Both the position numbers and the translations under genes were made by a program. A model generated the notes under the pieces. It was given only the letters and a program-made list of their open reading frames with translations, ran no database searches and was not told the DNA's origin. DNA of 64,000 bases from an uncultured archaeon (GTDB lineage: Archaea > Asgardarchaeota > Thorarchaeia > Thorarchaeales > Thorarchaeaceae), in contig CAYWJO010000008.1 of the NCBI GenBank assembly GCA_964458565.1, positions 37,995 to 101,994 of the forward strand, written 5' to 3'. This document shows, piece by piece, positions 727-38,135 of the stretch. Numbering within the stretch: the stretch's first letter is position 1; each line of letters begins with the position of its first letter.

Positions 727-2661
727 ATGGGCTTGAAAGTGAAGTACGTGGAACAACTAAAAGAAATATTTGAGGATCGTCTCATTACTGCAAAGCACGA
801 ACTTCTCCTCCAAGGGATTGACGTGGGCACACTTCCAAAACAGGTTGGATGGCTCATGAATCCAAATCCAGATGCTGTGGTACAACCGATATCCCCTGAG
901 GAAATTCAATCTCTATACAAGTTCGCCAATGAGACAAAGACCCCAATTGTACCTAGAGGGGCAGGGACATCAGGTTACGGGGGTGCGATTCCACGTAAAG
1001 GTGGAATAGTTGTTGATATTCGTCGAATGGACAAAATCCTTGAAATCGACAAAGAGAATATGACTGTAACAGTGGAGCCAGGAATCACTTGGTCTAATCT
1101 ACAGTTCGAACTAAGTCAACACGATCTTGATGTGCCATGTTATCCATCCTCCGGTCTCTCAGCAACAATCAGTGGATGGGTCGCTCAAGGTGGAGACGGT
1201 ATCGGGTCTCTTAAGTATGGAAAAGTCAATGATATAGTTGAAGAGTTGCAGGTCGTTCTTCCTGATGGTAGAATAGTCACAACGAAAGATAACGACCTCT
1301 TCTGTGACACCGAAGGAATTTTGGGAATCATCACAAAGATCACGCTTAAGATAAAACCACTCAGACCAATTCATCCTATTGTTGTCAGCTTTCCTGAGAA
1401 CTACCAACTAGTATTCGCTATTGAGCACATCTTAGAAGAAGGTCCATTACCCTACACAATGAAATTCAAGGAATCCAAATACATTGACTTGAAGAAGAGA
1501 GCTTGGGATAGCGATGAGCCCTTCCCATTCCCCGTACATCATGGTGTCTTGATGGTCGCCTATGAGGGTGATGATATAGAAGAAGGCTTTCGAGTTGTTG
1601 AAGCGGTCACAGAGAAATTTCAGGGGACCGTCTATGACCAGCATGTTGCTGACCATGAATGGGAAGAGAGATTCTACCCGATGAAGATAAAGAAACTTGG
1701 TCCTACCCTTGTTGTTGGCCAAGCATTTGCACCACTTGAAACTCTTGAGGCGCTCCTTGATGATTTCCATTGGGAACAAGCTTCAGCAGAAGCAGGTATG
1801 GATGGTTGGGTGACGACGAAAAATGGTGTGACCCTCATGGGTTATTTCCTTGAAGATGAACGTCGAAGATTATTCATGCTCTCCTGGTCTCAAAGCTTCC
1901 TCATCTGGAAGCTCGCGCAAAGGCATGGTGGTCACCCTCACAGCACAGGCATATGGTTTGCCAACTATGCACCGCAGTACTTTGGAAAACGGAGACTCGC
2001 TAGGATTCGTGCTGCGAAGACTGAACTTGACTCGAAGAACGTATCGAACCCTGGTAAGATATTCGCTTACTGGTTACCCTGGATGCTTCGAATTGGGAAG
2101 TATTTCATGTGGATTACTTTCGACATGATGCGAAATGGATTCGGTAGAAGCGCACCCCCCTATCTTCGATTGTTGCAGAATATGCCTCCAATCAAATGGA
2201 TTCTCCGATGGGGTAGGGCACACAGTCCTTGGCCGCTTCAGTATGGTCTAGGTTGTTGCATGGTAGAAGGTGCTGCCGCAGTTGCTTCAAGATGGGACTT
2301 CGAACGTTTCGGAATGCTACCACTCTTCGCACCAAGGCAGACCGATGTGTTATGGATTTCTGGATCCCTTACAAAGAAGATGGCAAAGCGTCTCAGAAGA
2401 ATCTATGAACAGATGCCTGAACCCAAGTTCGTTATTGCTTATGGCCAATGTGCTGCGAGTGGCGGCATGTTTTGGGATGGCTACAGTCTCATTTCACCAC
2501 CTGACTCAGTTGTACCTGTAGATGTTTACGTACCTGGATGTCCACCAAAACCATCCGATCTCATGCGAGCACACATTATTCTACAGAACAAGATTCGCGC
2601 TGGTACAACTCACTGGCAACAAAACTATGAGAATCAAGATGCTATGGGATTCTGGAAATAG
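727..2661 (+). CDS. Fusion of a FAD-binding oxidoreductase (GlcD/VAO fold) and a C-terminal complex I NuoB subunit
   Basis: N-terminal PRGAGTSGYGGAIP, VEPGI, ATISGWVA, TEGILGIIT and NPGKIF (ends ~2064). From ~2209: WGRAHSPWPLQYGLGCC...ERFG...PRQTD...YEQMPEPKFVIAYGQCAASGG...PVDVYVPGCPPKP, which is NuoB with the tandem CC. No stop between the two parts. Confidence 0.93.
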   Translation: MGLKVKYVEQLKEIFEDRLITAKHELLLQGIDVGTLPKQVGWLMNPNPDAVVQPISPEEIQSLYKFANETKTPIVPRGAGTSGYGGAIPRKGGIVVDIRRMDKILEIDKENMTVTVEPGITWSNLQFELSQHDLDVPCYPSSGLSATISGWVAQGGDGIGSLKYGKVNDIVEELQVVLPDGRIVTTKDNDLFCDTEGILGIITKITLKIKPLRPIHPIVVSFPENYQLVFAIEHILEEGPLPYTMKFKESKYIDLKKRAWDSDEPFPFPVHHGVLMVAYEGDDIEEGFRVVEAVTEKFQGTVYDQHVADHEWEERFYPMKIKKLGPTLVVGQAFAPLETLEALLDDFHWEQASAEAGMDGWVTTKNGVTLMGYFLEDERRRLFMLSWSQSFLIWKLAQRHGGHPHSTGIWFANYAPQYFGKRRLARIRAAKTELDSKNVSNPGKIFAYWLPWMLRIGKYFMWITFDMMRNGFGRSAPPYLRLLQNMPPIKWILRWGRAHSPWPLQYGLGCCMVEGAAAVASRWDFERFGMLPLFAPRQTDVLWISGSLTKKMAKRLRRIYEQMPEPKFVIAYGQCAASGGMFWDGYSLISPPDSVVPVDVYVPGCPPKPSDLMRAHIILQNKIRAGTTHWQQNYENQDAMGFWK

Positions 2662-2931
2662 ACGTATGAACTTCGATACTACTCAGTCAAGCAAGAGATT
2701 AGGAATTTGAGAGTTATACTACTATTACCTGAGATGATTATCGGATTAAATAAATGGTAACTTCTCCCTCGTAGGATAGATATCTGGATGTTCAAAATCA
2801 AGCATTTTTTGGTTTTCAAGTTTCAAAATACATACTCAACTATCGTTAAAACTGATTCAGAACGAACAAGTATATATGGCCATAATTGCCGATGCTTTAA
2901 ACACCTTCCAGAAGAATGGAGCTAAAAACAA

Positions 2932-4311
2932 ATGGTTCGATATACTGACAATCCAACAGTCAATAAGCGGCTGGTTGCAGGTTACTACCTGTTCCTCTGC
3001 TTAGTTGGGTTCACCATTCTTCTAGGACCAACTGGTTCCGGAATCCCAATCACTCTGGTTGGCGATGACGGAAGATACGAGCACCAGCTCGCGTATCCGG
3101 GAATGGGTACGGACTCAGCTTCCTGTGGCGCTACAGACTGTCATGATGACCAGTGGGACTACTGGAATCATACCAGCCACGCAAATGACCTGATGTTCAA
3201 TGGTACACATGTGTCACTTGGACATGGTTGGAGAGATCTTGCATCCTTCAACTCGTCATGTGCATGGTGTCATGCAACAGGCATAGACAATGAAACCTGG
3301 ACTGAAGTAGGTGTCGGTTGTCTTGCTTGTCATGATGGTACATCACCCTATCTATCATATGATGGTGAAGTATGTGGAGATTGCCACAATCCAGAACATC
3401 ACGAAACTGCAACCTCATATCCTGATTGGGAGGCATCAGTCCATGCTGATTCAATGACGGATCTAAGAACAAGTGATCATGCCAGTTCATCATGTATGCA
3501 CTGTCAGGCCACTGAATCTTTCATCCATCAACAGAATCCCGGAGACCTAGCTAGCTTTGTCAACACAACATTTGATGTTGATGGCGACTATACATCGATT
3601 TCTTGTCCAGCGTGTCACTCTGTACACTCAAACTGGTCAATGGTAGAAGGCAATGGTCTGCTTCGTGCAAACGATGCAACAGAGCTTTGTTCTCTCTGCC
3701 ATGTTGGAGATCATCACCCACAGTACCAAGTGTGGGAAGGTGGTCCTCACGATTTAGCAGGTGTTGAGTGTATTAGCTGTCATGGCTATCAGCTTATTTG
3801 GTCATCCCATGGTGGATGGACCCCAGTCACTAACCACACATTTGCTCTCAATGCGACAGCAGCTTGTGGTCAGGATGGCTGCCATGAAGGTGATAGAGCC
3901 GATTGGGCAATTACCATGATGGAAGCACGCGCTGACGCGTACACAGCTCTAACTGGAGAAATCGAAGACGAAGCTACAAGTTTAGCAGCTTTAGTCGATG
4001 CGTACAATGTAACCACTGGTGCCAACTACTCGCTTTCAGCTGATGTCTATGAAGCTATTGACGCAGCTGAACTGCAGGTTGACATCTACAATGCTGACAA
4101 ATCCATGGGCATGCATGATGGTGCTGAAACATTCACTACCCTCAATGCTGTCTTTGCTGATTTACTCAATGCAAAAGCCATGTTCTATAAGCTGTCATCG
4201 ACAGCAGCTCCTACTGGAGCATCTATGGACATGATTATTATCATTGGTGGTGCAGCAGGTGGTCTTGTACTTGGTTTGGTTCTAGGAGTATTGGTCGGAC
4301 GACGTAGATAA
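2932..4311 (+). CDS. Membrane-anchored multiheme cytochrome c (6 CxxCH, 2 Cx4CH, 1 CxxCQ)
   Basis: Motifs CGATDCH, CAWCH, CLACH, CGDCH, CMHCQ, CPACH, CSLCH, CISCH, CGQDGCH. N-terminal hydrophobic segment, helical C-terminal region with ADKSMGMHDG, then a TM helix and RRR. Confidence 0.92.
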   Translation: MVRYTDNPTVNKRLVAGYYLFLCLVGFTILLGPTGSGIPITLVGDDGRYEHQLAYPGMGTDSASCGATDCHDDQWDYWNHTSHANDLMFNGTHVSLGHGWRDLASFNSSCAWCHATGIDNETWTEVGVGCLACHDGTSPYLSYDGEVCGDCHNPEHHETATSYPDWEASVHADSMTDLRTSDHASSSCMHCQATESFIHQQNPGDLASFVNTTFDVDGDYTSISCPACHSVHSNWSMVEGNGLLRANDATELCSLCHVGDHHPQYQVWEGGPHDLAGVECISCHGYQLIWSSHGGWTPVTNHTFALNATAACGQDGCHEGDRADWAITMMEARADAYTALTGEIEDEATSLAALVDAYNVTTGANYSLSADVYEAIDAAELQVDIYNADKSMGMHDGAETFTTLNAVFADLLNAKAMFYKLSSTAAPTGASMDMIIIIGGAAGGLVLGLVLGVLVGRRR

Positions 4312-4337
4312 TACGAAATGGAGAAACCACGGATGGG

Positions 4338-4375
4338 AACGGATGTAAATCATCCGTTTACCTCCTATTTTTTTT
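4338..4375 (+). terminator. Stem-loop plus T-tract after the multiheme cytochrome gene
   Basis: AACGGATG-taaat-CATCCGTT followed by T8 at 4368-4375. Confidence 0.65.
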
Positions 4376-4496
4376 CCATTAGGCCTTCCACTTGGAACTA
4401 GGCACTCTCTTTTTACCATTCTGATCTATTCTATGAACATCCATATGATGTACGTTCATAACTCATGATTTCACAATTTAAGGAGTATATTGACAA

Positions 4497-6665: not shown

Positions 6666-6668
6666 TGG

Positions 6669-9098: not shown

Positions 9099-9282
9099 TT
9101 TGCTAAGACAGAGCAACCATCACAGGTCATCTTGTTGGTTGCTTCTGCTAGTATTATTTACATGATGGAACTGATTCAAGATAAAAAGGATACAGAGTGT
9201 AAAGACCAACATCTTTATGGGTATGATTTAGTGGCAGAATGAACATTATTGCTGCCTGTGATAGCGCTCAAATTGAAATCAT

Positions 9283-15573: not shown

Positions 15574-15594
15574 TTTGTTCTCCTCTTAATTTCT

Positions 15595-16098: not shown

Positions 16099-16100
16099 TA

Positions 16101-16694: not shown

Positions 16695-16921
16695 TGTTTC
16701 ACCGTATCCGCATTTTCCATTCAAATTTTACAATTTGAATTTCGATTTGAAACCAAATGAATGATATATGAGCATATCGGAATATTCCTTATTCTCTCAC
16801 ACTGTATAAACAGTTACACTTGGAAGCCAATTAACGTATAAATGGTTTCGAGATATAATTAGCTGATGGAATTAGCTATCCTCTTCTATATATTTTGAAT
16901 AAGAATTTAATCAAATGATTA

Positions 16922-19842: not shown

Positions 19843-19863
19843 AGGGAGCTTAAAGAAGTCTTG

Positions 19864-19885
19864 GGAGTGCCTGTTATGGCACTCC
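19864..19885. terminator. Intergenic perfect 8-bp stem-loop inside the operon
   Basis: GGAGTGCC-tgttat-GGCACTCC. Confidence 0.5.
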
Positions 19886-19899
19886 TCGTTTCAGAATGA

Positions 19900-21228: not shown

Positions 21229-21232
21229 TTTC

Positions 21233-22357: not shown

Positions 22358-22364
22358 TTCTGAA

Positions 22365-23888: not shown

Positions 23889-23892
23889 ATCA

Positions 23893-25324: not shown

Positions 25325-25870
25325 ATGAAACTGCGAGAAGATACTGATCAGTACTGCCTGCTGTGGGTTGGAGTACTTATCCTTGCAACTTACTATTTCA
25401 ATTTCCTGTTTCTTTTTAGTATAGGATCGGCGGACTTTACACCATTCGTCACATTATCATTACCTCTTCTCGGAATACCCCTCGTACTTATCTCGACATT
25501 CATGGGATACTTACGTCCTGAGAGAGGGAAAGCAAAACCGAATGCATTAGCACTCTCTGTCGTTTTTTCGCTTTTCTACATGCTCTCCTGCATATTTGCA
25601 TATGATTTATTCAATGCTTGGAATTTCTCGAATTTCATAGAGAGTATGGGCTTTGCATCTTGGGGTATCGGTTCTGCAATCCTAACAGCTGGTGGCCTAT
25701 CAATTATGCAATCTTTTGAAGACAGCGTAGAGGGAGACATTCTTGATCTTAGTAAACTACACTATCCTCCTGGTGAGATTCCAGAACCAGAATCAGAGAA
25801 TAGTGCTCAACCTGAAATAGCAGAACCTGATGTACCTGAAGCGAAAGAAGAGCCAATCCCTGAAGAATAG
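25325..25870 (+). CDS. Hypothetical 4-TM membrane protein with acidic Pro/Glu tail
   Basis: Hydrophobic segments; fills the intergenic space. Confidence 0.65.
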   Translation: MKLREDTDQYCLLWVGVLILATYYFNFLFLFSIGSADFTPFVTLSLPLLGIPLVLISTFMGYLRPERGKAKPNALALSVVFSLFYMLSCIFAYDLFNAWNFSNFIESMGFASWGIGSAILTAGGLSIMQSFEDSVEGDILDLSKLHYPPGEIPEPESENSAQPEIAEPDVPEAKEEPIPEE

Positions 25871-25898: not shown

Positions 25899-26261
25899 TT
25901 ATTCAACCATCCATGCTAGTACAGAAAATGCTAGAAGCAACCCAAATGCTATCCATGCAAAAAGGATTATACCCGCACCTGGAGTGAAGAATATGATATC
26001 CATATATCCATGAATTCCGCCAAGTGAACCAGAAACCATCGTTGTTGCAATTCGCTCATTTCTCGTCTTTGCAAATCCAAGTGCTAAAGTTGAAACAACC
26101 AAAAGTATTGCAGTAATCACTAGAATATTACTCACACTTGGGCTTGGATAGCTGGCAAGTCCAAATGGATATATCAGATACCAGAGGTATGATCCAATGA
26201 ATGCCATTCCAGTTAAGAGACCTAAGTAGTGCCAGACCGTTCCATCATCTTCCATCGTCAT
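25899..26261 (-). CDS. Hypothetical 4-TM membrane protein
   Basis: Hydrophobic segments; convergent with the previous gene. Confidence 0.6.
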   Translation of the reverse strand: MTMEDDGTVWHYLGLLTGMAFIGSYLWYLIYPFGLASYPSPSVSNILVITAILLVVSTLALGFAKTRNERIATTMVSGSLGGIHGYMDIIFFTPGAGIILFAWIAFGLLLAFSVLAWMVE

Positions 26262-26548: not shown

Positions 26549-26992
26549 ATGCGGCTCTTCATGGACTTCCTTCCAGTAATAATCTGGGCTATACTTGCAG
26601 GTGCACTCGTTGTTATAATGCTGCTCACATCGTGGTTTTTGAGACCTCATACTCTACAGAATTCCGAAAAAACCGCGTCCTATGAATGTGGTGAGGAACC
26701 CATAGGTCCCGCTAGAATCTCATATCCCTATAATTACATCGTATATACCGTTCTGTTTGTTGTAGTTGATGTATTGACGGCATTCCTATGGCTATTCGCA
26801 TCTGCGTCTTGGGATATTCGAGGTTCCGTTCTTATTGTTAGTCAAGCTATCATTTTTACTCTCATCATAATGATTGGTATCTGGTATGCTGTAAGTAGAA
26901 TTCCGGAAACCATTCTCGATGGATCCGAAACTCTTGCGTTGTATAGAGAAGCAAAAGCCAAACGGGACAAGGAGGTTGAAACGACACATTGA
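26549..26992 (+). CDS. nuoA: Complex I-like subunit A
   Basis: KTASYECGEEP, LFVVVDV; 3 TM helices. Confidence 0.9.
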   Translation: MRLFMDFLPVIIWAILAGALVVIMLLTSWFLRPHTLQNSEKTASYECGEEPIGPARISYPYNYIVYTVLFVVVDVLTAFLWLFASASWDIRGSVLIVSQAIIFTLIIMIGIWYAVSRIPETILDGSETLALYREAKAKRDKEVETTH

Positions 26993-27660
26993 TGCAACTG
27001 GATGAAGCCACACTTATCGGTATAGCTGAACCCTTAGAATTCTTAGCTGTCACAATTGCAGTGATCATCCTCGCGTATCTTGCACTTGAGCATAAGGACA
27101 TTGTATATGCGGCATTCTTCTTCGGTCTGATGGCTGCTGTTGTGTCAGGGTATTTCCTATTCCTCGAAGCCCCCTTTGTTGCCGGTATGCAGATTGCAGT
27201 GTACACCGGCGGAATTAGTGCATTAATCGTCTTTGGTGTTCTTTTGCTCCCAAGATCTCAGGATTCATCATTGGAAACTTTCCCTTCACTAGAAAAGAGC
27301 AGAATTGGTAAGTTGATTGCTGCAGCTGTGACAGCACTTTCTGCGGCTCTTGCTTTGACTTACCCTGGTGTTTGGCAGACTGCACCCTCATATGCTGGTA
27401 TTGAAAGCGAAGGAGCGAATTATTTCTTAGAGGAACTTGCAGTCTGGCTTTGGCAAGATCACGGTATCCTAATACAAATTGTTGGTTTGATTATTCTAAC
27501 AACTCTCGTGGGCACAATCGCCATAATGAGAATGGAGAAAGCTGAGCGACTAATACCTCTGAAATCTGATTTTGGAATTGAAGTCATTGACCTTGAAAAA
27601 GAGGATGATCATGAAAGTGATCAAGAAGTATCGTCTTCTTCGGAGGTAGAGGACCAATGA
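26989..27660 (+). CDS. nuoJ: Complex I-like subunit J
   Basis: LEAPFVAGMQIAVYTGGISALIVFGVLL. Confidence 0.88.
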   Translation: MMQLDEATLIGIAEPLEFLAVTIAVIILAYLALEHKDIVYAAFFFGLMAAVVSGYFLFLEAPFVAGMQIAVYTGGISALIVFGVLLLPRSQDSSLETFPSLEKSRIGKLIAAAVTALSAALALTYPGVWQTAPSYAGIESEGANYFLEELAVWLWQDHGILIQIVGLIILTTLVGTIAIMRMEKAERLIPLKSDFGIEVIDLEKEDDHESDQEVSSSSEVEDQ

Positions 27661-27986
27661 TGCCACTTTATGCATATGTTTTGGTAGCCTTTATCCTAGT
27701 TGGGATGGGCGCATACGGGATGATGGTCAAACGCAATCTCATTCGTATTCTTATCGGAGCAGAAATTATGGGTAATGGGGTTCTAATTGCACTAATCGCA
27801 TTTGCCATGTATGGCCCTACTGCTGGTGTCTATACTTTTGCAGGTCAAGGGCTAGTAGTCCTTGTCATATCCGTTTTTGCAGCCCATACAGCACTAGCTA
27901 TGGTCTTGATGCTTATGTACCATAGAAGATATGGACATGTCGATCTGGGAAAGGTGGTTATTTTGGAGGATGAGCATTTTGACTGA
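27657..27986 (+). CDS. nuoK: Complex I-like subunit K
   Basis: KRNLIRILIGAEIMGNG, GQ; 3 TM helices. Confidence 0.88.
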   Translation: MMPLYAYVLVAFILVGMGAYGMMVKRNLIRILIGAEIMGNGVLIALIAFAMYGPTAGVYTFAGQGLVVLVISVFAAHTALAMVLMLMYHRRYGHVDLGKVVILEDEHFD

Positions 27987-28536
27987 AGTACTACATGTCG
28001 CAGCAGCGACATTTGCTCGAGAGGTGATCAACAAATTTCCAGATGTTGAATCTAAGCCTCTTAATGATAATGGAGTTGAGCTCATCACTCCACGAACACA
28101 TATCAGAGATATCGTAAACATGATTGACGAACGATTTGACGACGCATTTCCAGAATTAGTCTTTGGTGTTGATTTGGAAGAGGGTAATTTCGAAGTAATC
28201 TACATATTCTGGATGAGATCCTCCAGTCTTCTTCTCCAGATACGCATTCCCTTACAAGAGAATGATCTCTGGGTAGACACTGTTTCAGATATATTCCCAG
28301 GTTTTGAGTGGCATGAGAGAGAAACCCATGAAATGTTTGGCATTGATTTCAAAGGTCACCAAGATCTTCGACTTCTTCTGTTGCCTGATGAGCTAGAGGG
28401 GCAGTATCCCCTGCGAAAGAGCTTCAAGACTGATAGAAGCCGATTGGAAGAGAGTGGATTGACTGTCCCGAAACCAAAGCCATCCCCCTCAGCGAGACCT
28501 GATGATAAACCAGCAAAGGAGGCTGATAGCGAATGA
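27970..28536 (+). CDS. nuoC: Complex I-like subunit C
   Basis: WHERETHEMFGIDFKGHQDLRLLLLP...YPLRKSF; start probably ATG 27970 or TTG 27979. Confidence 0.9.
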   Translation: MSILTEVLHVAAATFAREVINKFPDVESKPLNDNGVELITPRTHIRDIVNMIDERFDDAFPELVFGVDLEEGNFEVIYIFWMRSSSLLLQIRIPLQENDLWVDTVSDIFPGFEWHERETHEMFGIDFKGHQDLRLLLLPDELEGQYPLRKSFKTDRSRLEESGLTVPKPKPSPSARPDDKPAKEADSE

Positions 28537-29672
28537 AGCCGGATATATCTGACGAAGCTGTTGAATTGTGGTTTGGCCCGCAGCACGTAGCAGCACATGG
28601 TTGGGCTACGAAACTGACTCTCGTTGGAGACTATATAGTTGAATGTGATCCTAATGCAGGTTATTTCCATAGGTCAGCTGAGAAATGTTTGGAGTTCCGG
28701 AATTTCCGGCAGGGTGCACTTATCATGGAACGATTGTGTATGCCTGAAGCATTTCTTGCAGAATATCCGTATGTTCAAGCCGTTGAAAAAATCGCTGAGA
28801 TTGAGGTACCTGAAAAAGCGAAGTTCATGAGAACCATCATGATGGAGGTCAGTCGAATTCATAGTATCCAATTCTGGTGGGGTCAACTGGCAGGTGAACT
28901 AGGACTCTTTACAATGGTACTATGGCCATGGATTGATCGAGAGTACACATTGGATGCATTCGAAGAACTTACTGGCTCACGCCATGCCGTTACATACAGC
29001 ACTCCTGGTGGCGTCAAATACGATTTCACAGATGAATTCCTTAGAAGATTGGATTTAGCAATCTATCATTTAGAAAATCATCTTGGTAAATTCAAAGATA
29101 TGATTTTAAAAAGTCCCACTTTCAAAGCTCGTGCGCAGAATGTAGGTTTATTCTCTACCAAAGAAGCATTGAAACTTGGACTTAGTGGTCCCAATATCCG
29201 TGCATGTGATTATCCAATGGACCTACGGAAAGATGCTCATGATCCCAATCTCAAATACGACCAAGTTGACTGGGAAGTCCCTGTTTTGGTGAGTGAGGAG
29301 CATGGTTCAGGAATGTGTGATGCATATGACAGGATGATTCAGCGTTTCAATGAAGTTGATGTAGCCCTTCAGATTATCAGGGGTCTCCTGCCACAAGTTC
29401 CTGAGGGTCCTATAATCGACCCCAAAGTTAGAGCTAAGACCAATAGACTCCCCGCAGGGGAAGCGTACGGACGAGTTGAGGGTGCAAGAGGAATCTCAAC
29501 ACTTTGGCTCAAGACTACAGATAAGGCACAGACTCCATATAGAGCCAAAATCCGAGGTCCATGCTTTAATTCGTATTATGCCTTAAAACATTTAATGCCC
29601 GGACTCCGGTTCGCAGACTTTGTTCTCGTCTTTGGGAGCCTAGATCCCTATGTCGGGTGGTGGGATCGATAA
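28533..29672 (+). CDS. nuoD: Complex I-like subunit D (no NiFe ligand set)
   Basis: GPQHVAAHG, GYFHRSAEK, EVSRIHS, LSGPNIRA, EGARG, C-terminal SLDPYVGWWDR; both CxxC pairs of hydrogenases are missing. Confidence 0.88.
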   Translation: MKPDISDEAVELWFGPQHVAAHGWATKLTLVGDYIVECDPNAGYFHRSAEKCLEFRNFRQGALIMERLCMPEAFLAEYPYVQAVEKIAEIEVPEKAKFMRTIMMEVSRIHSIQFWWGQLAGELGLFTMVLWPWIDREYTLDAFEELTGSRHAVTYSTPGGVKYDFTDEFLRRLDLAIYHLENHLGKFKDMILKSPTFKARAQNVGLFSTKEALKLGLSGPNIRACDYPMDLRKDAHDPNLKYDQVDWEVPVLVSEEHGSGMCDAYDRMIQRFNEVDVALQIIRGLLPQVPEGPIIDPKVRAKTNRLPAGEAYGRVEGARGISTLWLKTTDKAQTPYRAKIRGPCFNSYYALKHLMPGLRFADFVLVFGSLDPYVGWWDR

Positions 29673-30814
29673 TGGGAGGTTTGACATTGATGCAGTTTGA
29701 AGATTTCATTAATTGGCTGAATGGGATTCCTGGCTGGCTCTATGATGTCCTCGTCTGGTGGTTTAATGCTATCTGGTGGTGGATTAATCTACTCTGGGAC
29801 TCCATTGTTATAATCTGGGCTTCAATGTTTGGAAACGCAGAGGTATTGGCCTACTGGTTCAAAGCCATAGTGTTCCCTGGACTTGTCTTTATCCTTCTGG
29901 GAATTATATTTACAGTTTGGGCGACTCGTAAAACATGGGGCCGCATTCAAGGTCGACGAGGTCCATACAATCTTGGGAAATATGGTGGTCTACAGCTCTT
30001 CGCAGATGCGATAAAGTTGATTGGAAAAGAATCTATTATTCCTAAAGGAGCCAAGCGTTGGATGTACAGGTTCCTTCCATCCTTTCTATTGGTTATTGTT
30101 CTATTACCGTTTGTATTTATTCCATGGGACACTGATTGGGTGATTGTAGACCTTTCAGTTAGCTTGGTCTTGATCTTTGCATTTCTTACTGCAATTCCTG
30201 TTATTTCGCTCCTAGCAGGATGGATTAGTGGATCCAAGTATACCATTATCGGAGGTTTCAGAGCTGCAAATAACCAGTTTGCTTCTGAGATTCCATTAGT
30301 ACTGTCAACAGTTGGTCCTGCTATGCTAGCAGGTTCACTTAGCGTCTTGAGTATAGCACAGGTTCAGGCAGATTCTTTCTGGTTCATTTTCCTGTTGCCA
30401 TTGAACTTCGTTACGTTCCTGATTAGCGCTGTTATGTCAGTTGGAATGGTACCATTCGATGCACCTGTTGCCGACTCTGAGATTCTGTTTGGATGGCGAA
30501 CGGAATTTTCAGGAATTTGGTTCGTTATGACCTATTTTGCTGAATTTGCAGAGATGCTCTTTTACTCAGCAATGATGGTAACTCTATTCTTTGGAGGTTT
30601 CTCGGGTCCTGCATTCCTCCCTGGAATTGTAATCTTTCTCATCAAGCTCATGATAGTGATGTTCTTCTTCATTATAGTGACTTCATCATTCTATAGGCTC
30701 AGACAGGATCAGATTGTTTCGTTTAGTTGGAAGTACCTTCTTCCCTTGACAATACTAAACATTCTGATAGTCATGTTTGGAATGGCCTATTTTGGATTGT
30801 ACATAGGAGGTTAG
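29672..30814 (+). CDS. nuoH: Complex I-like subunit H with Trp-rich N-terminal extension
   Basis: RKTWGRIQGRRGP, GLQLFADAIKLIGKE, SKYTIIGGFR, PFD, RLRQDQ...WKYLLP; start uncertain between 29672 and 29690. Confidence 0.92.
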   Translation: MGGLTLMQFEDFINWLNGIPGWLYDVLVWWFNAIWWWINLLWDSIVIIWASMFGNAEVLAYWFKAIVFPGLVFILLGIIFTVWATRKTWGRIQGRRGPYNLGKYGGLQLFADAIKLIGKESIIPKGAKRWMYRFLPSFLLVIVLLPFVFIPWDTDWVIVDLSVSLVLIFAFLTAIPVISLLAGWISGSKYTIIGGFRAANNQFASEIPLVLSTVGPAMLAGSLSVLSIAQVQADSFWFIFLLPLNFVTFLISAVMSVGMVPFDAPVADSEILFGWRTEFSGIWFVMTYFAEFAEMLFYSAMMVTLFFGGFSGPAFLPGIVIFLIKLMIVMFFFIIVTSSFYRLRQDQIVSFSWKYLLPLTILNILIVMFGMAYFGLYIGG

Positions 30815-30817
30815 AAA

Positions 30818-31249
30818 ATGAGTAAGTTAGGAACAATAGCAAACTCGCTCAGAATACTGCGACATGTATTCAGACGTATCTTCAAACGTCCGTTTACTTA
30901 CTTCTATCCTTGGGAGGATAGATATTATCCTGAATTGACTCGTGGAAGACATATTCATGTTAGAGAGAATTGTACCGCATGTAGTCAGTGTGTACGCGCC
31001 TGTCCAGTTGTTGCAATTCGTATTGACAAGGAGGACAAGAAGTATGAGAAGGACGCCGCCTTATACTTCGATTACTCACGCTGTCTCTTCTGTGGACTTT
31101 GTGTTCAAGCATGCAATTTCGATGCACTATTTCACACTCCTATCGTCGATCTAAGCGCTGATAGCCAAGAGAAACTCATCTATGGACCTGACAGGATAAC
31201 GAAGATCGAACGGGAACCACTCGAGTGGCGAGGGAGGAAGATCAGATAA
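30818..31249 (+). CDS. nuoI: Complex I-like subunit I (2x4Fe-4S)
   Basis: TYFYP, RGRH, CTACSQCVRACP, CLFCGLCVQAC. Confidence 0.92.
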   Translation: MSKLGTIANSLRILRHVFRRIFKRPFTYFYPWEDRYYPELTRGRHIHVRENCTACSQCVRACPVVAIRIDKEDKKYEKDAALYFDYSRCLFCGLCVQACNFDALFHTPIVDLSADSQEKLIYGPDRITKIEREPLEWRGRKIR

Positions 31250-32802
31250 TGCAACTAGGTGCCCTGCTTGATTTCCCATTTATGACTCTATCATTGGGAA
31301 TATTATTCATAGGAGCTCTCTTCATCTACCTATTCAGAAACTCGCTAAAAGAACAAGCTGGAAAGGTTGCTGTCATTTACTCATTCTTAGGAATGCTAGC
31401 AATGATTCCTCCGTTTTACGAACTAATCGTAAATGGTCATCCAGCAAGTGAAACCGCCAGATGGTCCATCGTCATTGGCGAGTGGGGCCTCTATCTAGAT
31501 GGCATCGCTTTTCCAATCACCTTTGCAATAGTAGTTCTTGGTTTCCTTTCAGTAGTGTACGCTGTCGGATATACCGAACACACAAAGAACAAACCAACAT
31601 TCTTTGCAAATCAACTGTTCTTCCTCATGGGAATGCAATGGGTGACACTTGCTACAAATCTCATCGAGTTTTTCATAGCTTGGGAATTAATGCTGGTTCC
31701 ATCTTATTTCCTAATTCTCTTCTGGGGTCTCCCAGAAACTCGTAAGCGAACAGCTCTGAAATTCTGGCTGTACACACAATCAGGTGCAGTCTGTATTCTA
31801 GTTGGTTTTGGTCTCTTGTATGCATTTACCGGAACCTTCGAATTATATGCCCTTGGTTCGGGCATTATTGATGTTCTCGCTGCAACTCCAATTGCACTTG
31901 AATTGTCAAAACTAATCTTCATACTTCTCGCAGCTGGCTTCTTAGTCAAGATGGCTGTATTTCCGATCCACTGGTGGTTACCTCCAGTCCACGCTGAAGC
32001 ACCCACTCCAATCTCAGTCTTGCTTTCTGGAGCGATGATCGAGACCGGTGCCTATGCACTTGTTCGATTTGCTCAGATTACTCTAGGTTTTGAAACTGCA
32101 ATCGACTTGAGTTTCTATATCGGGGCTATCGGTGTAATTACGATGTTCTATGGAGGTTTCATGGCTCTTGCCCAGAAGGACATCAAGCGACTCCTCGCTT
32201 ATAGCTCGGTTTCTCAGATGGGCTATGTTCTGTTTTCTTTAGGAATGTACACATCCTTTGGAATGGCCGGAGGTCTCTTTCATCTCATCAATCACGCTTT
32301 CTCGAAGGGTCTCTTGTTTATGACTGCCGGGGCGGTTATACATCAAACTGGTTTACGGGATATCGATAAAATGGGCGGCCTCTCAAACAAAATGCCAATC
32401 ACTGCATTCGCTGCGGCGATCGGAGCATTGAGTATAGCAGGGAGTCCACCTCTCTCAGGATTTGCCAGCGAGTGGATGATGTTTCTTGGAGGATTCCAGC
32501 GTGCTTTTGATAGTACTCCTATCAGCCTTCCGTTTCTCATCCTATCAATACTTGCAGTATCAAGCTCCATCCTGAGTGCAGGCTACATGCTCAGATTCCT
32601 GTGGAGAGTATTCCTTGGTCCTCATCCAAACGAACTCGAGAATGTCACAGAGACGTCACGATGGATGTTATTACCCATGGTTGCACTAGCCGTGCTTGTC
32701 GTCATCTTTGGTGTCTTCCCAGGATTGGCTTTGGATATCATTGGTGGAGCGGTGGAGCATATTTCGGAAATCATTGGTACCTTTGCAGGAGGTGGACATT
32801 AG
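31249..32802 (+). CDS. nuoM: Antiporter-like subunit, additional NuoM-type copy (M1)
   Basis: FFIAWELMLVP, KFWLYT, KMAVFPIHWWLP...AEAPTP, KRLLAYSSVSQMG, GFASEW; start ATG 31249 overlaps the nuoI stop. Confidence 0.8.
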   Translation: MQLGALLDFPFMTLSLGILFIGALFIYLFRNSLKEQAGKVAVIYSFLGMLAMIPPFYELIVNGHPASETARWSIVIGEWGLYLDGIAFPITFAIVVLGFLSVVYAVGYTEHTKNKPTFFANQLFFLMGMQWVTLATNLIEFFIAWELMLVPSYFLILFWGLPETRKRTALKFWLYTQSGAVCILVGFGLLYAFTGTFELYALGSGIIDVLAATPIALELSKLIFILLAAGFLVKMAVFPIHWWLPPVHAEAPTPISVLLSGAMIETGAYALVRFAQITLGFETAIDLSFYIGAIGVITMFYGGFMALAQKDIKRLLAYSSVSQMGYVLFSLGMYTSFGMAGGLFHLINHAFSKGLLFMTAGAVIHQTGLRDIDKMGGLSNKMPITAFAAAIGALSIAGSPPLSGFASEWMMFLGGFQRAFDSTPISLPFLILSILAVSSSILSAGYMLRFLWRVFLGPHPNELENVTETSRWMLLPMVALAVLVVIFGVFPGLALDIIGGAVEHISEIIGTFAGGGH

Positions 32803-35037
32803 ATGCTGTTTGGTCTTCCTTACTATCTAATCCTAGTACTCCCACTTGGAGGGTCTTTACTAGTCCCGCTGGTTGGGAAATTCAGTGAAAAACTGCGAGA
32901 CTGGACTCCTGCTATCTTTATGGGCTTCGCTATGATTCTCTGCTGGTCTCTTCTCTTCGATTCATTTGATCCAGCACATCCGCCAAGTTGGACGTGGATT
33001 GAAATTCTAGGATTGAACTTTGAAATTCTACTAGACTCCCTGTCAGTAATAATGGCAATCCTATCTAGTACACTCTGTTTCCTCATCTATGTATACAGTA
33101 CAGAATACATGGCCCATGAGGAAGATAAGGACCGATTCTTCTTCATGATGCTTGCCTTCGGTGGAGGAATGCTCACTCTTGTACTCAGCAATAATCTGCT
33201 CATTGCCTTTATTGGATGGGAGATTATGGGATTCTGTTCTTACGGACTTATCGGATTTTGGAACGATAAACGTAATCCACCTGAAACTGATCCGACAGAT
33301 ATAGAGACCTCAAACCCTCTTCTGAAATTTGAGACCGAGGGTGAATACAATACACATTGTGGAACAAAGGCATTCATTGTAACACGAATTGGTGATGCCT
33401 TCATGTTGGGTGGTATCCTTCTACTCTTCCTATACACGGGAACCTTCTCATTCACCGAGATGGCAGCTGATTCACAGCATTGGTGGGGTACCATGGCAAG
33501 TGTCGGAATGCTGGTTCCAACATTTCTCTTGATTTTTGCTGGTGCTATTGGAAAATCTGGACAAGCCCCATTACAGGTGTGGCTTCCAGAGGCAATGGCT
33601 GGACCTACTGCAGTTTCTGCCCTAATACATGCTGCAACCATGGTAAAAGCGGGTGTGTACATCAGTGCACGTTTTCTAGTCACTATGGTTGGAGCATCGG
33701 GAGGTGGACATGCGGAGGAAGGTATGGTCGCATTACAAGCAGCGGGTCTGGAGGTCGCATCTGTGTTCTTTACGACCGTAGCAATAGTAGGTGCGATAAC
33801 AGCCATCATGACTGCAACAATGGGCATGGTTTCAAACGAGCTTAAGCAGGTTCTTGCATTTTCAACCTTGAGTCAACTTGGATATATGATGTTGGCAATA
33901 GGTACAGGAGGTCTCCTTGAACATTATGATCACGCGTATCTTGCTGGGGTGCTGCATGTTGTTTCTCATGGTGCGTTCAAGGCGCTGCTGTTTCTTGCAG
34001 CAGGTGGAGTCATTCACGCGATTCATACGAAGTATATGACGAAGATGGGAGGTCTCAAAAAGTATATGCGGAAGACCTTCATTGTGATGTGGATTGGTGT
34101 TCTTGCATTATCAGGTATACCGCCATTCTCTGGATTCTGGTCAAAGGACTCCATCATTGAATATACATACGAGCTCGCAGCACATGGAAGTGCTCTAGGT
34201 TGGGTGCTCTTTACATTTGCAGTACTCGCAGCAGCATGTACAATATTCTATAGCATGCGGCTTATGGGAATGACATTCTATGGTCCTGGCCGAGATGATG
34301 AGCATCACGAAGATACAGATCATCATGAGGAACTTGAGCATCACGAGGAACAAGAGGACAAAGATGAGCATGAACAAAATGACCATGGTCACTCAGAGCC
34401 ACATGATCCGGGTCCTGCTATGATGATTCCTCTATACATCCTTGCCGCCTTCACCATATTAGCTTTCATCGTGTATCCAATCATACAAGAATTCGTCTTA
34501 CAAGAGGGTCATACGTGGATAGAGAACTTGACCTATATGATTACTGTCAAGTTTAGCGCTGAGGGGATTACACCCTTCGTGATTACTCTGGGAGCTCTTG
34601 CTCTTGGAGGTATACCCGGGTACATGATGTACATTAAGAACTCAGACAAGCCCAACACATTCGTACCGGAAACTGGAGCACGACGTAAAGTGTTCAACTT
34701 CCTACGTCATCGGTGGTACATCAATGAGGCTTACGGTTGGGTACTCAATAAGTTCCTTAACTTTGCATCTTGGTGGAGAGAACGTATAGACAATATTATC
34801 ATTGATGGCATCGACTTCAAGTCTCGGGATGCTGCGTTAGCAATATCCACAAAGGTTCGCTGGGTCGATGATCATCTTGTTGATGGATTTGCTGAGGCAA
34901 TTTCAACAAAGAGCGTAGGTGCATCTGAAACAAGTAAGAAGGCACAGACTGGACTAATCAACGACTATCTGGGAATGATGCTATTCGGAGTTGGAATAAT
35001 GGTCATCATTCTTCTAGTAACACTAGGGGTGATCTGA
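32803..35037 (+). CDS. nuoL: Complex I-like subunit L with extended transverse helix
   Basis: WEIMGFCSYGLIGFW, KAFIVTRIGD, GKSGQAPLQVWLPEAMAGPTAVSALIHAATMV, GFWSKD, WY...DG...DG...QTG. Confidence 0.93.
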   Translation: MLFGLPYYLILVLPLGGSLLVPLVGKFSEKLRDWTPAIFMGFAMILCWSLLFDSFDPAHPPSWTWIEILGLNFEILLDSLSVIMAILSSTLCFLIYVYSTEYMAHEEDKDRFFFMMLAFGGGMLTLVLSNNLLIAFIGWEIMGFCSYGLIGFWNDKRNPPETDPTDIETSNPLLKFETEGEYNTHCGTKAFIVTRIGDAFMLGGILLLFLYTGTFSFTEMAADSQHWWGTMASVGMLVPTFLLIFAGAIGKSGQAPLQVWLPEAMAGPTAVSALIHAATMVKAGVYISARFLVTMVGASGGGHAEEGMVALQAAGLEVASVFFTTVAIVGAITAIMTATMGMVSNELKQVLAFSTLSQLGYMMLAIGTGGLLEHYDHAYLAGVLHVVSHGAFKALLFLAAGGVIHAIHTKYMTKMGGLKKYMRKTFIVMWIGVLALSGIPPFSGFWSKDSIIEYTYELAAHGSALGWVLFTFAVLAAACTIFYSMRLMGMTFYGPGRDDEHHEDTDHHEELEHHEEQEDKDEHEQNDHGHSEPHDPGPAMMIPLYILAAFTILAFIVYPIIQEFVLQEGHTWIENLTYMITVKFSAEGITPFVITLGALALGGIPGYMMYIKNSDKPNTFVPETGARRKVFNFLRHRWYINEAYGWVLNKFLNFASWWRERIDNIIIDGIDFKSRDAALAISTKVRWVDDHLVDGFAEAISTKSVGASETSKKAQTGLINDYLGMMLFGVGIMVIILLVTLGVI

Positions 35038-36612
35038 ATGCAACTAGTAGACTTCGTTCTTAACCTCCCATTAGGAATCCTTGAGATAATGTTGCTCCTC
35101 CCCATTGCAGGAGCATTCTTGGCTTTCTTGGCCGGCAATAAGGCTTCAAGGATTGTAGCATTACTCATCACCACAATCGAACTTGCCTTATCCCTTATCC
35201 TCGCTCTGGCATATGTTCCCCCTACAACAGTATCAGATTTAGGCATCATGTTCAACTCAACTTATCCAATAGCTGACCTAAGTAGTGTCGGTGGAACAAC
35301 ACTACAGTTTGAGCTGGGTGTTGATGGAATTTCAGTTGTCATGATTATACTAGCTAATCTTGTTGTTTGGATAGCAGCGATAAGCTCGAATCACATCCAT
35401 GAATCAGAGAAGTCATATTATTTCTTCTTTCTCTTGCTTCAGACAGGACTCCTAGGAGTTTTCATGTCATTAGATTTGATTGGATTTTTCGTATTCTGGG
35501 AGCTTGTTCTAATCCCCATGTTCTTCATAATAGGGCGCTGGGGTGAGGAAGGTTGTCAGCATGCAGCAATCAAGTTCTTCATCTATACCCACTTAGGATC
35601 AGCTGTATTGATAGTGAGCTTCTTTTCACTCTACTTCTTAGCACCTGAACCTACTTTCAGTATGATTGCACTGAGAGGAATGGGACTTCCTATGATGGTG
35701 CAGTTTGGTTTTGCAATCGCTGTCTTTGTTGGTGCTGGAGTTAAACTACCAGTCTTTCCACTGCACAACTGGCTTCCATGGGCTCATGTAAAAGCACCTA
35801 CGCCAGGTTCTGTCATCCTTGCAGGAATTCTGCTTAAAATGGGTGGATATGCCTTCATTCGTCTGGGTCTCTGGATGGTTCCTGAGGCTTTCTCACGATT
35901 AGCACCAATATTTGCAATTGTTGCAATATTCACATGTATCTACGCGGCATTTACTGCGATGGCTCAAACTGATATGAAGAGCCTTGTCGCTTACACTTCC
36001 ATCAACCATATGTCGTGGGTGCTACTAGCAGTAGCAGTTGCTTCCATTGGAATCTATCCACCAGCTGGACTTGATATTGCTACAACAGAACTGCTGAAGG
36101 CAGCTGCAAATCTTGCAATTCAAGGTGCAGTGTTCATGATGTTCTCACATGGGACAATAATCTCAGTGATGTTCATTATGGCGGGTCAACTCAAATATGC
36201 GGCAGGAACCAGAGAGATTCCTGCTATTCAAGGCCTGATGGAGAAAGCTCCGCGTATGGCTGCAATTCTAATACTTGCTGCTTTTGCGGCTTTCGGTCTT
36301 CCTGGATTTAGTGGTTTCATCGCAGAGGCTTTGATACTCTTTGGCTCTGTTTCAATCTACATATGGGCTGCAGTAATTGGATTTGGTATCTTCATCACGG
36401 TTGGATATATCCTTTGGATGCTAAATAGGATCGTCTTCAGCGATCCCGATCCTGAAAAGGAAGTGACTGAGGCTCCATGGTCTGATCTGATTGCCCCAAT
36501 TCTGATGATGATCCCAGTTATTCTTCTGGGTCTCTGGCCCGATTTAATATTGTATCTAATTGATCCGATATCAAGATTGATGCTCGGTCTTCCACTTGGA
36601 GGTGTTCCATAA
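35038..36612 (+). CDS. nuoM: Complex I-like subunit M (M2)
   Basis: FFVFWELVLIPMFFIIGRWG, KFFIYT, KLPVFPLHNWLPWAHVKAPTPGSVILAGILLKMGGY, GFIAE. Confidence 0.92.
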   Translation: MQLVDFVLNLPLGILEIMLLLPIAGAFLAFLAGNKASRIVALLITTIELALSLILALAYVPPTTVSDLGIMFNSTYPIADLSSVGGTTLQFELGVDGISVVMIILANLVVWIAAISSNHIHESEKSYYFFFLLLQTGLLGVFMSLDLIGFFVFWELVLIPMFFIIGRWGEEGCQHAAIKFFIYTHLGSAVLIVSFFSLYFLAPEPTFSMIALRGMGLPMMVQFGFAIAVFVGAGVKLPVFPLHNWLPWAHVKAPTPGSVILAGILLKMGGYAFIRLGLWMVPEAFSRLAPIFAIVAIFTCIYAAFTAMAQTDMKSLVAYTSINHMSWVLLAVAVASIGIYPPAGLDIATTELLKAAANLAIQGAVFMMFSHGTIISVMFIMAGQLKYAAGTREIPAIQGLMEKAPRMAAILILAAFAAFGLPGFSGFIAEALILFGSVSIYIWAAVIGFGIFITVGYILWMLNRIVFSDPDPEKEVTEAPWSDLIAPILMMIPVILLGLWPDLILYLIDPISRLMLGLPLGGVP

Positions 36613-38135
36613 TGCAACCATTGACAGACTTAGTGAACCTCATAAGAGCACTGTTTAAACCATTCACAGATGTATTATTACAAGTCATGACTGACCTCAA
36701 TCTCGAGAGTTGGATAGGATCTCTTCCAGTCTTGACCCTAATCATCTTCGCACTATTGTCATTAGTAGCAAAGAAAGGGCGAATCCCAATTGTAATGAGC
36801 TTCATAGGTGTAATCCTTGCCACTATTCAAATGATAATGATTGAACCTATGGATTCATTCGGTGGCCTTTTCACGAGAGATGCATTTGCTGACTTCTTCA
36901 TCTACCTGATACTCATTGTAGCATTTCTTGTACTTCTATCAGCAACCACATTTGGAGGGGACAAGGGGACATATACCTTCATGTTGATGATGTCCTTTGC
37001 TGGAGCTATTTGGGTAGTTATGGCTACAGATCTGATTGCTTTGTTTCTCGCGTGGGAGCTGATGTCAACTCCAACCTATATCTTAACTGCGTTGGGTCCA
37101 CATCGAGGAGCTGTTGATGGTGCAACGAAGTACTTCATCATGGGTATGATGGCAACCGTATTCATGTTGTTTGGCATCGCTCTTGTTTATGGGGTCACAG
37201 GAGAGACCACGTTAAGCAAACTTGCAGAAGTGGTTAACACGATTTGGATATCAGGGTCTATCATGGATAATGCGGCATGGACACTAATCCTAGCAATGGT
37301 ACTATTTGTGATAGCCTTTGGTTTCAAAATAGGTATCTTCCCCGGATGGATGTGGGTCGCTGATACTTACGGGACTGCCGACGGGAGTGTTGTTGCATAT
37401 CTAGCTGGTGGTGCAAAGAAGACTGGTGTGAGTGCTGTCATGCGAATAATGATAGTAGGCTTCTTCATAGCACGATTCGAATGGATGCCTTTACTAATCA
37501 CGGTATCAATACTCACGATGGTCATAGGTAATGTTCTTGCTTTGCAATTCAATGAAGGTAAGTTCCCCATCAACAGAATGCTGGCGTATTCCAGTATTAC
37601 CATGATGGGATATCTCTTTGTTGGACTTGCTGCTGCTTCTGAGCTTGGAGCTGCTGCCGCGATGTTTCATGCATTCGCACATGCTTTGATGAAATCAGGG
37701 GCATTTATTCTAATTTGGGCGATGGCAATAACACTTGGTAAAGAGATTGATTACAATGATCTGAAGGGTCTTGGTAAGAGGGCTCCGACTTTGTCAGCCT
37801 TCTTAGCGATTCTAATATTCGCTCTTGCTGGTTTCCCATTGACGGTAGGCTTTTGGTCAAAGTGGATTCTTCTTCCGCAAGCTGCAGTTGAGGTTGGTCT
37901 CTGGTGGTTGGCGTTAATACTTCTATTGAATTCAGTCTTCTCTCTGGGATACTATCTTAGAGTATTGAAGTTCTGTTATTTCATGGAGCCAGAAGATGAC
38001 ACTCCGATAGTAATTCCAAAGCTACCAATGATTGCGGTAGGCATAACTGTGGTTGCAGTTTTAGTGCTATTTGCGTTCCCAGGTCTTGTTCTAGACTATG
38101 CGCTAGCGGCTGCAAACCTTCTATTCACCCCATGA
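36612..38135 (+). CDS. nuoN: Complex I-like subunit N
   Basis: WELMS, KYFIMG, GFKIGIFP..MWVADTY, RMLAYSSI, GFWSK, YYLRV. Confidence 0.92.
   Translation: MQPLTDLVNLIRALFKPFTDVLLQVMTDLNLESWIGSLPVLTLIIFALLSLVAKKGRIPIVMSFIGVILATIQMIMIEPMDSFGGLFTRDAFADFFIYLILIVAFLVLLSATTFGGDKGTYTFMLMMSFAGAIWVVMATDLIALFLAWELMSTPTYILTALGPHRGAVDGATKYFIMGMMATVFMLFGIALVYGVTGETTLSKLAEVVNTIWISGSIMDNAAWTLILAMVLFVIAFGFKIGIFPGWMWVADTYGTADGSVVAYLAGGAKKTGVSAVMRIMIVGFFIARFEWMPLLITVSILTMVIGNVLALQFNEGKFPINRMLAYSSITMMGYLFVGLAAASELGAAAAMFHAFAHALMKSGAFILIWAMAITLGKEIDYNDLKGLGKRAPTLSAFLAILIFALAGFPLTVGFWSKWILLPQAAVEVGLWWLALILLLNSVFSLGYYLRVLKFCYFMEPEDDTPIVIPKLPMIAVGITVVAVLVLFAFPGLVLDYALAAANLLFTP

Follow-up and report, generated by a model that had tools for sequence, protein, structure and literature searches.

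A flavoenzyme-NuoB fusion encoded with a NuoEFG-less complex I-like gene cluster in Thorarchaeia

Fusions of NuoB, the cluster N2 subunit of complex I that is also called Nqo6, PSST (NDUFS7) or NdhK, are known in the forms FqoBC and NuoBCD (PMC11237513). These proteins, like NuoA-NuoB, join neighbouring core subunits, whereas the protein considered here joins NuoB to a separate catalytic flavoenzyme. It is encoded by open reading frame (ORF) 727-2661 of a 64,000-nucleotide stretch of DNA (the window) from an uncultured archaeon of the family Thorarchaeaceae (assembly GCA_964458565.1, contig CAYWJO010000008.1, positions 37,995 to 101,994), which also contains a nuo gene cluster at 26549-38135. 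On the evidence of comparative genomics, not of biochemistry, this 644-residue protein is very probably the true NuoB, and the only one, of a complex I-like pump in Thorarchaeia (the Thor pump) that carries a flavoenzyme and an HdrD-like protein. The fusion is conserved, and the link that it makes between a respiratory pump and a second redox enzyme is apparently undescribed. No published description of a flavoenzyme-NuoB fusion was found in the searchable literature (most subscription papers lie outside that search, and a prior mention is possible), and a survey of Asgard complex I makes no mention of one.

One of the closest described systems is 2M complex I (Chadwick et al., ISME J 2018, as cited in PMC6606698 and PMC7117926). 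This type is reportedly characterized by a second NuoM-type subunit, a lengthened NuoL and the absence of NuoEF, and the 2M-type complexes of Nitrospira are proposed to work against ferredoxin. The Thor pump resembles the type in its extra NuoM and its lack of NuoEF, has a NuoL (744 residues) that may be lengthened in the same way, and differs from it in being archaeal, in its gene order (A-J-K-C-D-H-I-M-L-M-N), in the NuoB-flavoenzyme fusion and in a NuoD without Tyr87. The 11-subunit Fpo-like complex of Methanomassiliicoccales is head-less and is proposed to oxidize ferredoxin and to work together with a soluble HdrD-type CCG protein (Lang et al. 2015, as cited in PMC6147122). There, contact with HdrD is only hypothesized and the genes are separate, while in the Thor pump the fusion ties the flavoprotein partner of the HdrD-like protein to NuoB. 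Unlike Methanomassiliicoccales, the Thor organism has no methanogenesis context, and heterodisulfide is not an obvious substrate.

The flavin domain itself recalls LDHD, LctD and GlcD, and the Dld-HdrD gene pairs described in Sif- and Jordarchaeia (PMC9723677). Likeness extends to the fold (mouse LDHD), a sequence match with LctD and an HdrD-like neighbour, but a score below the GlcD cut-off, the motif GGHPHSTG, a membrane-surface tail and the fusion to NuoB set it apart. Finally, the membrane-bound sulfane reductase (MBS) and membrane-bound hydrogenase (MBH) of Pyrococcus furiosus (6u8y, 6cfw) resemble the Thor pump through the match of MbsL with NuoD, the motif R-x-C-x-P-E, the retention of one former NiFe cysteine and the missing tyrosine. 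Here, by contrast, the membrane arm is that of a true complex I (A, H, J, K, L, M, M, N), NuoD retains His38, and NuoB is nearer to NdhK and Nqo6 than to MbsJ.

The fused NuoB and the nuo cluster

The fusion gene is an uninterrupted frame in which profile searches locate FAD_binding_4 at residues 48-186 (3.7e-41), FAD-oxidase_C at 218-445 (6.8e-11) and Oxidored_q6 at 511-615 (5e-25). Its C-terminal 155 residues score above the NCBIfam cut-offs for NuoB (177.9 against 142.7 for TIGR01957, 187.4 against 116 for NF005012). Among solved proteins, this domain matches NdhK and Nqo6 best (about 1e-43 to 1e-45), and its Cys510, 511, 575 and 605, including the tandem CC, line up with their N2 ligands. 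The first-pass annotation, which described a flavoprotein joined in frame to an intact NuoB, thus holds, and the junction, which it proposed to verify at read level, is sound: per-run contigs from four salt-marsh metagenomes, among which the source sample may itself figure, cover the fusion gene with neither a mismatch nor an indel, and the domain junction is bridged in two of these metagenomes. The domain behaves as other NuoB proteins do in its hidden Markov model (HMM) cut-offs, in its N2 ligand set and in being encoded with nuoA, C, D, H, I and J-N; it departs from them in lying C-terminal to a 490-residue flavoprotein and in having its own N-terminal segment replaced by an amphipathic tail. 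The parts of the fusion and the genes preceding it are as follows.

727..2061, plus strand: flavoprotein part of the fusion, residues 1-445; FAD_binding_4 and FAD-oxidase_C, LDHD-like fold
2062..2193, plus strand: aromatic amphipathic tail or linker, residues 446-489; without transmembrane segment, same tail at the end of unfused orthologues
2194..2661, plus strand: NuoB domain, residues 490-644; N2 ligands Cys510, 511, 575 and 605
1..563, minus strand: 5' part of the HdrD/GlcF-like partner gene, which continues about 675 bases upstream of the window (whole gene L006:9320-10558)
L006:5871-9323 (contig C8:33870-37322), upstream of the window: MenA-like UbiA prenyltransferase, then polyprenyl diphosphate synthase and a geranylgeranyl-reductase-family gene

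The nuo cluster has the order A-J-K-C-D-H-I-M-L-M-N, and profile searches of 26549-38135 yield no nuoB, E, F or G, just as first annotated. All eleven subunits are intact, and both NuoM-type genes exceed the TIGR01972 cut-off (309.5 and 418.7 against 263.8). Two small genes, orf181 and orf120, are conserved across genera between the fusion gene and nuoA and may encode accessory subunits; neither these nor the 402-residue ORF 23893-25101 has a Pfam or NCBIfam match.

25325..25870, plus strand: orf181; three hydrophobic (transmembrane) helices, acidic tail; in relatives, the next gene after the fusion
25899..26261, minus strand: orf120; small membrane protein with two to three transmembrane helices, between orf181 and nuoA in relatives
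26549..26992, plus strand: nuoA, by profile match
26989..27660, plus strand: nuoJ, by profile match
27657..27986, plus strand: nuoK, by profile match
27931..28536, plus strand: nuoC, by profile match
28533..29672, plus strand: nuoD; no NiFe cysteine pairs, His38 kept, Tyr87 replaced by Met and Asp86 by Cys (RLCMPE)
29657..30814, plus strand: nuoH, by profile match
30818..31249, plus strand: nuoI; eight cysteines, two [4Fe-4S] clusters
31225..32802, plus strand: first NuoM-like antiporter subunit, by profile match
32803..35037, plus strand: nuoL; 744 residues, about 105 of them between the last two hydrophobic segments (putative long lateral helix)
35038..36612, plus strand: second NuoM, by profile match
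36612..38135, plus strand: nuoN, by profile match

The search for missing modules was extended to the whole genome (3.73 Mb, 93 contigs, 93% complete, 5% contamination). NuoD and NuoH occur once each, and this 93%-complete genome contains neither NuoE nor NuoF nor the N-terminal domain of NuoG. Oxidored_q6 is found in three genes including the fusion; the two others were rejected as NuoB, both adjoining the [NiFe] large subunits of soluble group-3-type hydrogenases, one with Fer4_22 and NAD-binding subunits (group-3b-like) and the other with MvhD, HdrA and HdrBC (Mvh-type). The genome-wide scan proposed with the initial annotation hence finds no stand-alone complex I NuoB and no NuoEFG module. 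The accompanying statement that fpoF is absent is true of the nuo cluster but not proven for the genome. Of the two FrhB-family genes, one is the fdhB gene beside FdhA and MvhD; the second (contig C61:2221-3279, locus L035) lies between HerA-like and NTPase genes, unlinked to the nuo cluster, and encodes an orphan 352-residue protein with the FpoF-like architecture Fer4, FrhB_N and FrhB_C. The FpoF model matches it over the full length (2.7e-36), but the score is 125 bits against a cut-off of 475, and FrhB models score better.

The fusion is not confined to this genome. Its nearest database proteins are named Candidatus Thorarchaeota, and about 45 clusters at 90% identity contain a 646-residue protein with the same three domains, 71-86% identical and annotated by NCBI mostly as NuoB. 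Among the best 120 longer NuoB-containing proteins, only this group combines FAD_binding_4 with Oxidored_q6. Across 87 species genomes of the class, an orthologue of the fusion, full-length or truncated by a contig end, is present in genera g1-g12, together with an orthologous NuoH (62-69% identical); both the fusion and the orthologous NuoH are absent from g13-g16. Fusion and cluster therefore co-occur in the domain-architecture and co-occurrence checks suggested at the outset. Between genera, the NuoB part is 80-86% identical, which is above the conservation of the whole protein (72-76%).

Gene order leads in the same direction. Fusion gene and nuoH share contig and strand in 41 genomes, and in 36 of these the fusion gene is located 4.1-4.9 kb upstream of nuoH; the spacing is 6-11 kb in four genomes and 27 kb in the present one. 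Loci of four other genera read fusion, orf181, orf120 (opposite strand), nuoAJKCDHIMLMN, and where the flank reaches far enough upstream, as it does in three of them (L029, L032, L033), the fusion gene is preceded by a divergent HdrD-like gene. In the window, orf181 and orf120 still stand beside nuoA, and a block of about 22.7 kb (2662-25324) separates them from the fusion gene. Given the spacing in relatives, the distance of 24 kb first noted between the fusion and the cluster, although real in this genome, is not the rule and reflects a local rearrangement or insertion. An apparent natural fission of the fusion in genome G023 (L034, G023:C5:90500-110400, a 20-contig assembly) was rejected, nuoD being split there too; frame changes in both genes at one locus are probably assembly indel errors.

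The origin of the fusion can be followed in two relatives. In the sister-family genome G001, the cluster is nuoJ-K-B-C-D-H-I-M-L-M-N, with a free 152-residue NuoB, 51% identical to the fused domain, between K and C; in the fusion clade, nuoB has thus been moved from this position onto the flavoprotein gene just upstream. Genus g14, in which neither an orthologous NuoH nor a nuo cluster was found, retains the flavoprotein unfused (498-499 residues, 55-56% identical over residues 1-492) and ending in the aromatic amphipathic tail seen in the fusion, preceded by an HdrD-like orthologue (61-63% identical) and with the MenA-like neighbour kept. The fusion and the nuo cluster are both missing from genera g13, g15 and g16. 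Together with some fusion-bearing genomes, they do contain free NuoB-like genes (41-48% identical) in B-C-D-H-I clusters. These were rejected as alternative NuoBs: the associated large subunits keep both NiFe CxxC pairs (RICGIC and DPCxSC), which makes them true group-4 hydrogenases. In the tree, a single clade (100/99) unites the fused domains; it falls within complex-I-type NuoB (89/85) and outside the small subunits of groups 4 and 3, and the tree does not resolve whether the G001 NuoB is its sister. The position of the gene at the head of the cluster, the free nuoB of the sister family, the co-occurrence across genera and the grouping with complex-I-type NuoB all argue that the fused domain is the complex's own and only NuoB.

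The flavin domain and its HdrD-like partner

With FAD_binding_4, FAD-oxidase_C and an LDHD-like fold, the N-terminal half of the fusion belongs to the D-2-hydroxyacid dehydrogenase branch of the VAO/PCMH family. The AlphaFold model is confident for residues 1-445 (predicted local distance difference test, pLDDT, about 90) and less so for the long helix 449-484 (about 50-65). Its fold is closest to mouse LDHD (template modelling score 0.83-0.86, depending on the target), LctD and AGPS, and its best solved sequence match is LctD (3.6e-30). It is not a strict GlcD or LDHD, scoring 140.8 against a cut-off of 567.9 for the GlcD equivalog TIGR00387. The residues that bind flavin adenine dinucleotide (FAD) are invariant; the wider flavoprotein subfamily displays GGRPYSTG and an invariant HEW..R motif that the fusion shares.

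The divergent Fe-S gene flagged at the window edge proves to be a complete partner once followed upstream. It encodes 412 residues with a 2x[4Fe-4S] ferredoxin domain and two CCG domains of five cysteines each, matched by Pfam CCG in two stretches (3.5e-35). Cysteines 23, 26, 29, 36, 80, 83, 86, 90, 168, 203, 204, 240, 243, 295, 331, 332, 369 and 372 are invariant, and by domain and cysteine content the protein is a CCG protein of the HdrD/GlpC/GlcF type. Prediction of a complex between fusion residues 1-492 and this protein gives an interaction prediction score from aligned errors (ipSAE) of 0.88 (0.88-0.89 in three runs), the best control giving 0.00; this level is attained by 58 of 80 solved complexes and by 2 of 110 mismatched pairs. 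Contacts agree between runs to at least 96%, the partner has a pLDDT of at least 89, and the predicted interface places the dicluster domain (residues 18-93) of the HdrD-like protein over the FAD domain. No solved flavoprotein/CCG complex is found among the fold or sequence matches of the flavin domain. The conserved divergent synteny and the predicted complex support a binding of the HdrD-like protein by the flavin domain.

The module seems to be attached to the membrane. The fusion has no transmembrane segment, and its tail is amphipathic and rich in Trp, Phe and Arg. In two paralogous flavoproteins of the window (574 and 576 residues), two C-terminal transmembrane helices take the place of this tail, and an NrfD/PsrC-type membrane anchor is fused to P0053, the nearest homologue outside the class (labelled Hydrothermarchaeota, 41% identical), which indicates that this flavoprotein subfamily has repeatedly been fixed to the membrane. 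In complex I, input modules and ferredoxin dock at the distal cluster of NuoI. Residue 490 or thereabouts, the first of the fused NuoB domain, aligns with residue 43 of E. coli NuoB; in the E. coli structure, the stretch 43-53 is ordered only when the complex is complete, where NuoB meets the membrane arm (PMC8357420). Judged from this alignment, the linker would emerge from NuoB next to NuoH and NuoA at the level of the membrane, and not in the vicinity of the distal NuoI cluster. The Thor pump has four antiporter-like subunits and no NuoEFG, and it very probably carries the flavoprotein/HdrD-like module permanently, held there through NuoB.

Possible modes of operation

The working that we tentatively prefer, and that seems the likeliest of those considered, relies on a mediator shared by the two enzymes. 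Ferredoxin would exchange electrons with NuoI, from where they would pass via N6a and N6b to N2. A membrane-associated mediator would be turned over in the NuoB/NuoD pocket, driving or driven by ion translocation; it is probably a prenylated carrier in whose synthesis the neighbouring MenA-like prenyltransferase takes part. At its CCG site, the tethered enzyme of HdrD-like protein and flavoprotein would cycle the same mediator, with an organic substrate, perhaps a 2-hydroxy/2-oxo acid, as the other reactant. The assembly as a whole would be a ferredoxin:organic-substrate oxidoreductase coupled to an ion gradient, and the role of the fusion would be to hold both half-cycles of the mediator together. 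The idea stems from genus g14, which keeps the MenA-like gene, the HdrD-like gene and the tailed flavoprotein in the absence of the nuo cluster, and from the MenA-like neighbour in other genomes, the membrane anchors of paralogues and homologue and the position of the linker at the arm interface. The prenyltransferase gene, of the UbiA family, lies directly beyond the HdrD-like gene; its best matches are all 1,4-dihydroxy-2-naphthoate (DHNA) polyprenyltransferases (1.4e-38), it is the only such gene in the genome, and in at least 20 relatives, g14 included, it is found 1.5-5 kb from the fusion or the HdrD-like gene. The polyprenyl diphosphate synthase and the geranylgeranyl-reductase-family gene that follow it may just as well function in lipid synthesis. 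For 2M complexes, a stoichiometry of five ions per electron pair is proposed. At this ratio, the cost can be estimated at about 60-70 kJ per pair, a size matched by the step of about 0.3 V between ferredoxin and a lactate/pyruvate-like couple, so that the assembly could run in either direction near equilibrium.

A number of observations weigh against this picture. The flavin domain has GGHPHSTG at the position of the His-Gly-Ile-Gly signature of its LctD and LDHD relatives, and it lacks 'EHG' (Glu-His), the usual C-terminal catalytic signature of LDHD and GlcD; the organic-acid substrate is in consequence a guess at the level of the family. The NuoB half of the AlphaFold model has a pLDDT below 50 and provides no usable geometry, and one of the three paralogous HdrD-like proteins of the window could fit the flavin domain equally well. 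The MenA-like match is below its cut-off, and MqnA/D and MqnC were not found in the genome (classical MenB, C, D and F were not searched). The co-occurrence of fusion and nuo cluster among kindred genera perhaps reflects a single evolutionary event. The pocket of NuoD is also unusual. Of the two quinone head-group ligands of Nqo4, His38 and Tyr87 (PMC8357420), only the former is kept: all Thor orthologues have Met for Tyr87 and Cys for Asp86 (RLCMPE, Thermus numbering). Tyr87 is invariant in the canonical NuoD sequences aligned, which read R-x-D-Y, while G001 has RACFLE and the nearest outgroup (P0184-P0187), at most 47% identical, has RLSMLE. The classical quinone site is consequently doubtful. 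Among solved proteins, this NuoD matches MbsL of the P. furiosus sulfane reductase best (3.4e-59), in which the motif reads RICVPE. NuoD itself, with RLCMPE, DPYVGWWDR and no NiFe cysteine pairs, is not a hydrogenase. The composition of this MbsL-like pocket suggests a chemistry other than classical quinone reduction. For the module as first proposed, then, the structural half is upheld by synteny, the sister nuoB, co-occurrence, the tree and the predicted pair, whereas the functional half, the coupling of organic-substrate redox chemistry to ion pumping, is still an inference: the linker would leave NuoB at membrane level, the module exists without nuo in g14, and Tyr87 and the EHG signature are missing.

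These doubts leave room for a quinone-independent enzyme, that is, an ion-translocating ferredoxin:organic-substrate oxidoreductase in which electrons would move between NuoI, N2 and the module, either directly or by a new mediator in the Tyr87-less pocket; we regard this as possible but doubtful. Its direct form, in which FAD and the Fe-S clusters of the flavoprotein/HdrD-like module would be continuous with N2 or N6 and would replace NuoEFG without any diffusible mediator, is somewhat less probable still. The covalent link to the N2 subunit, the lack of NuoEFG, the four clusters that the HdrD-like partner adds by its predicted docking on the FAD domain and the Tyr87-less pocket, a hint of a non-quinone substrate, are all in keeping with such wiring, and the proposed Fpo-like/HdrD pairing of Methanomassiliicoccales (PMC6147122) is a precedent. 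The attachment, however, is at the N-terminus of NuoB, at the membrane-arm interface and away from the distal NuoI cluster, and the same module, with its MenA-like neighbour, is retained in g14 without the nuo cluster. The coupling mechanisms known in the family, which includes complex I, MBH and MBS, all need chemistry in the NuoB/NuoD pocket.

FpoF of Methanosarcina docks on the NuoI equivalent of Fpo. The orphan FpoF-like protein of contig C61 might dock in trans in the same manner, making the assembly an Fpo/Fqo-type enzyme with an attached flavoenzyme and with F420H2 in the place of ferredoxin. Its architecture and end-to-end alignment with the FpoF model would allow this, but with its score so far under the FpoF cut-off, the better fit of FrhB models and an unlinked gene, such an input is improbable. 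It is harder still to believe that the fusion is a free-standing dehydrogenase in which NuoB is an extra Fe-S domain without assembly into Nuo, the cluster being NuoB-less and either inactive or working in another way. The 24 kb between gene and cluster in this genome and the self-sufficient flavoprotein/HdrD-like pair of g14 would agree with it; the gene is nevertheless adjacent to the cluster in 36 of 41 relatives, free nuoB has gone from the K-C position exactly where the fusion exists, the NuoB domain is better conserved than the protein as a whole, and the eleven other subunits are intact. Equally far from probable is a silent flavin domain with a structural, assembly or regulatory role and no catalysis. 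The departure from the LDHD/GlcD catalytic signature speaks for it, and against it stand the invariant FAD-binding residues, the HEW..R motif shared with the wider subfamily, a pLDDT of about 90 and an intact, co-conserved HdrD-like partner.

Neighbouring genes and wider meaning

Further redox genes surround the fusion. Three more flavoprotein/HdrD-like pairs lie on the minus strand within 12659-23936 (12659-14389/14389-15573, 16922-18646/18622-19842 and 22365-23936/21233-22357), with an amine-oxidase-type flavoprotein at 19900-21228 on the same strand among them, and many relatives too have paralogues 10-35 kb from the fusion. One relative (L025, G053:C3:7500-27499) contains two HdrD-like genes paired with 573-residue flavoproteins 3.4 kb upstream of a group-4 [NiFe] hydrogenase (B-CD-H-I-K-L-M-M), so that pairs of this kind accompany a complex I-like machine in a second setting. 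Immediately downstream of the fusion gene, 2932-9098 encodes a multihaem cytochrome c (459 residues, weak c552/c554 matches), a 722-residue ORF without a known family and a haem lyase of the CcmF/NrfE type (809 residues). For an Asgard archaeon viewed as a fermenter, this set of genes is unusual. A very large ORF (38940-45263, 2107 residues) lies directly downstream of the nuo cluster.

The fusion bears on how the many NuoEFG-less relatives of complex I take up or release electrons, and on the long-proposed docking of HdrD on the Fpo-like complex. An N2 subunit joined to a flavoenzyme that is predicted to bind an HdrD-like protein is genetic evidence for such modules on the pump and offers a defined protein to study. 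Should the quinone-independent enzyme be real, the fusion would be 'Rosetta stone' evidence for HdrD-type docking on head-less complexes, and Asgard archaea presumed to be fermenters would conserve energy, or drive ferredoxin reduction, by a new class of complex I relatives. A widespread clade of Thorarchaeia has a conserved island in which the pump and the MenA-like gene are accompanied by several membrane-tethered flavoprotein/HdrD-like pairs and, in the genome studied here, by a multihaem cytochrome; its content suggests that energy is conserved at the membrane and not by fermentation alone.

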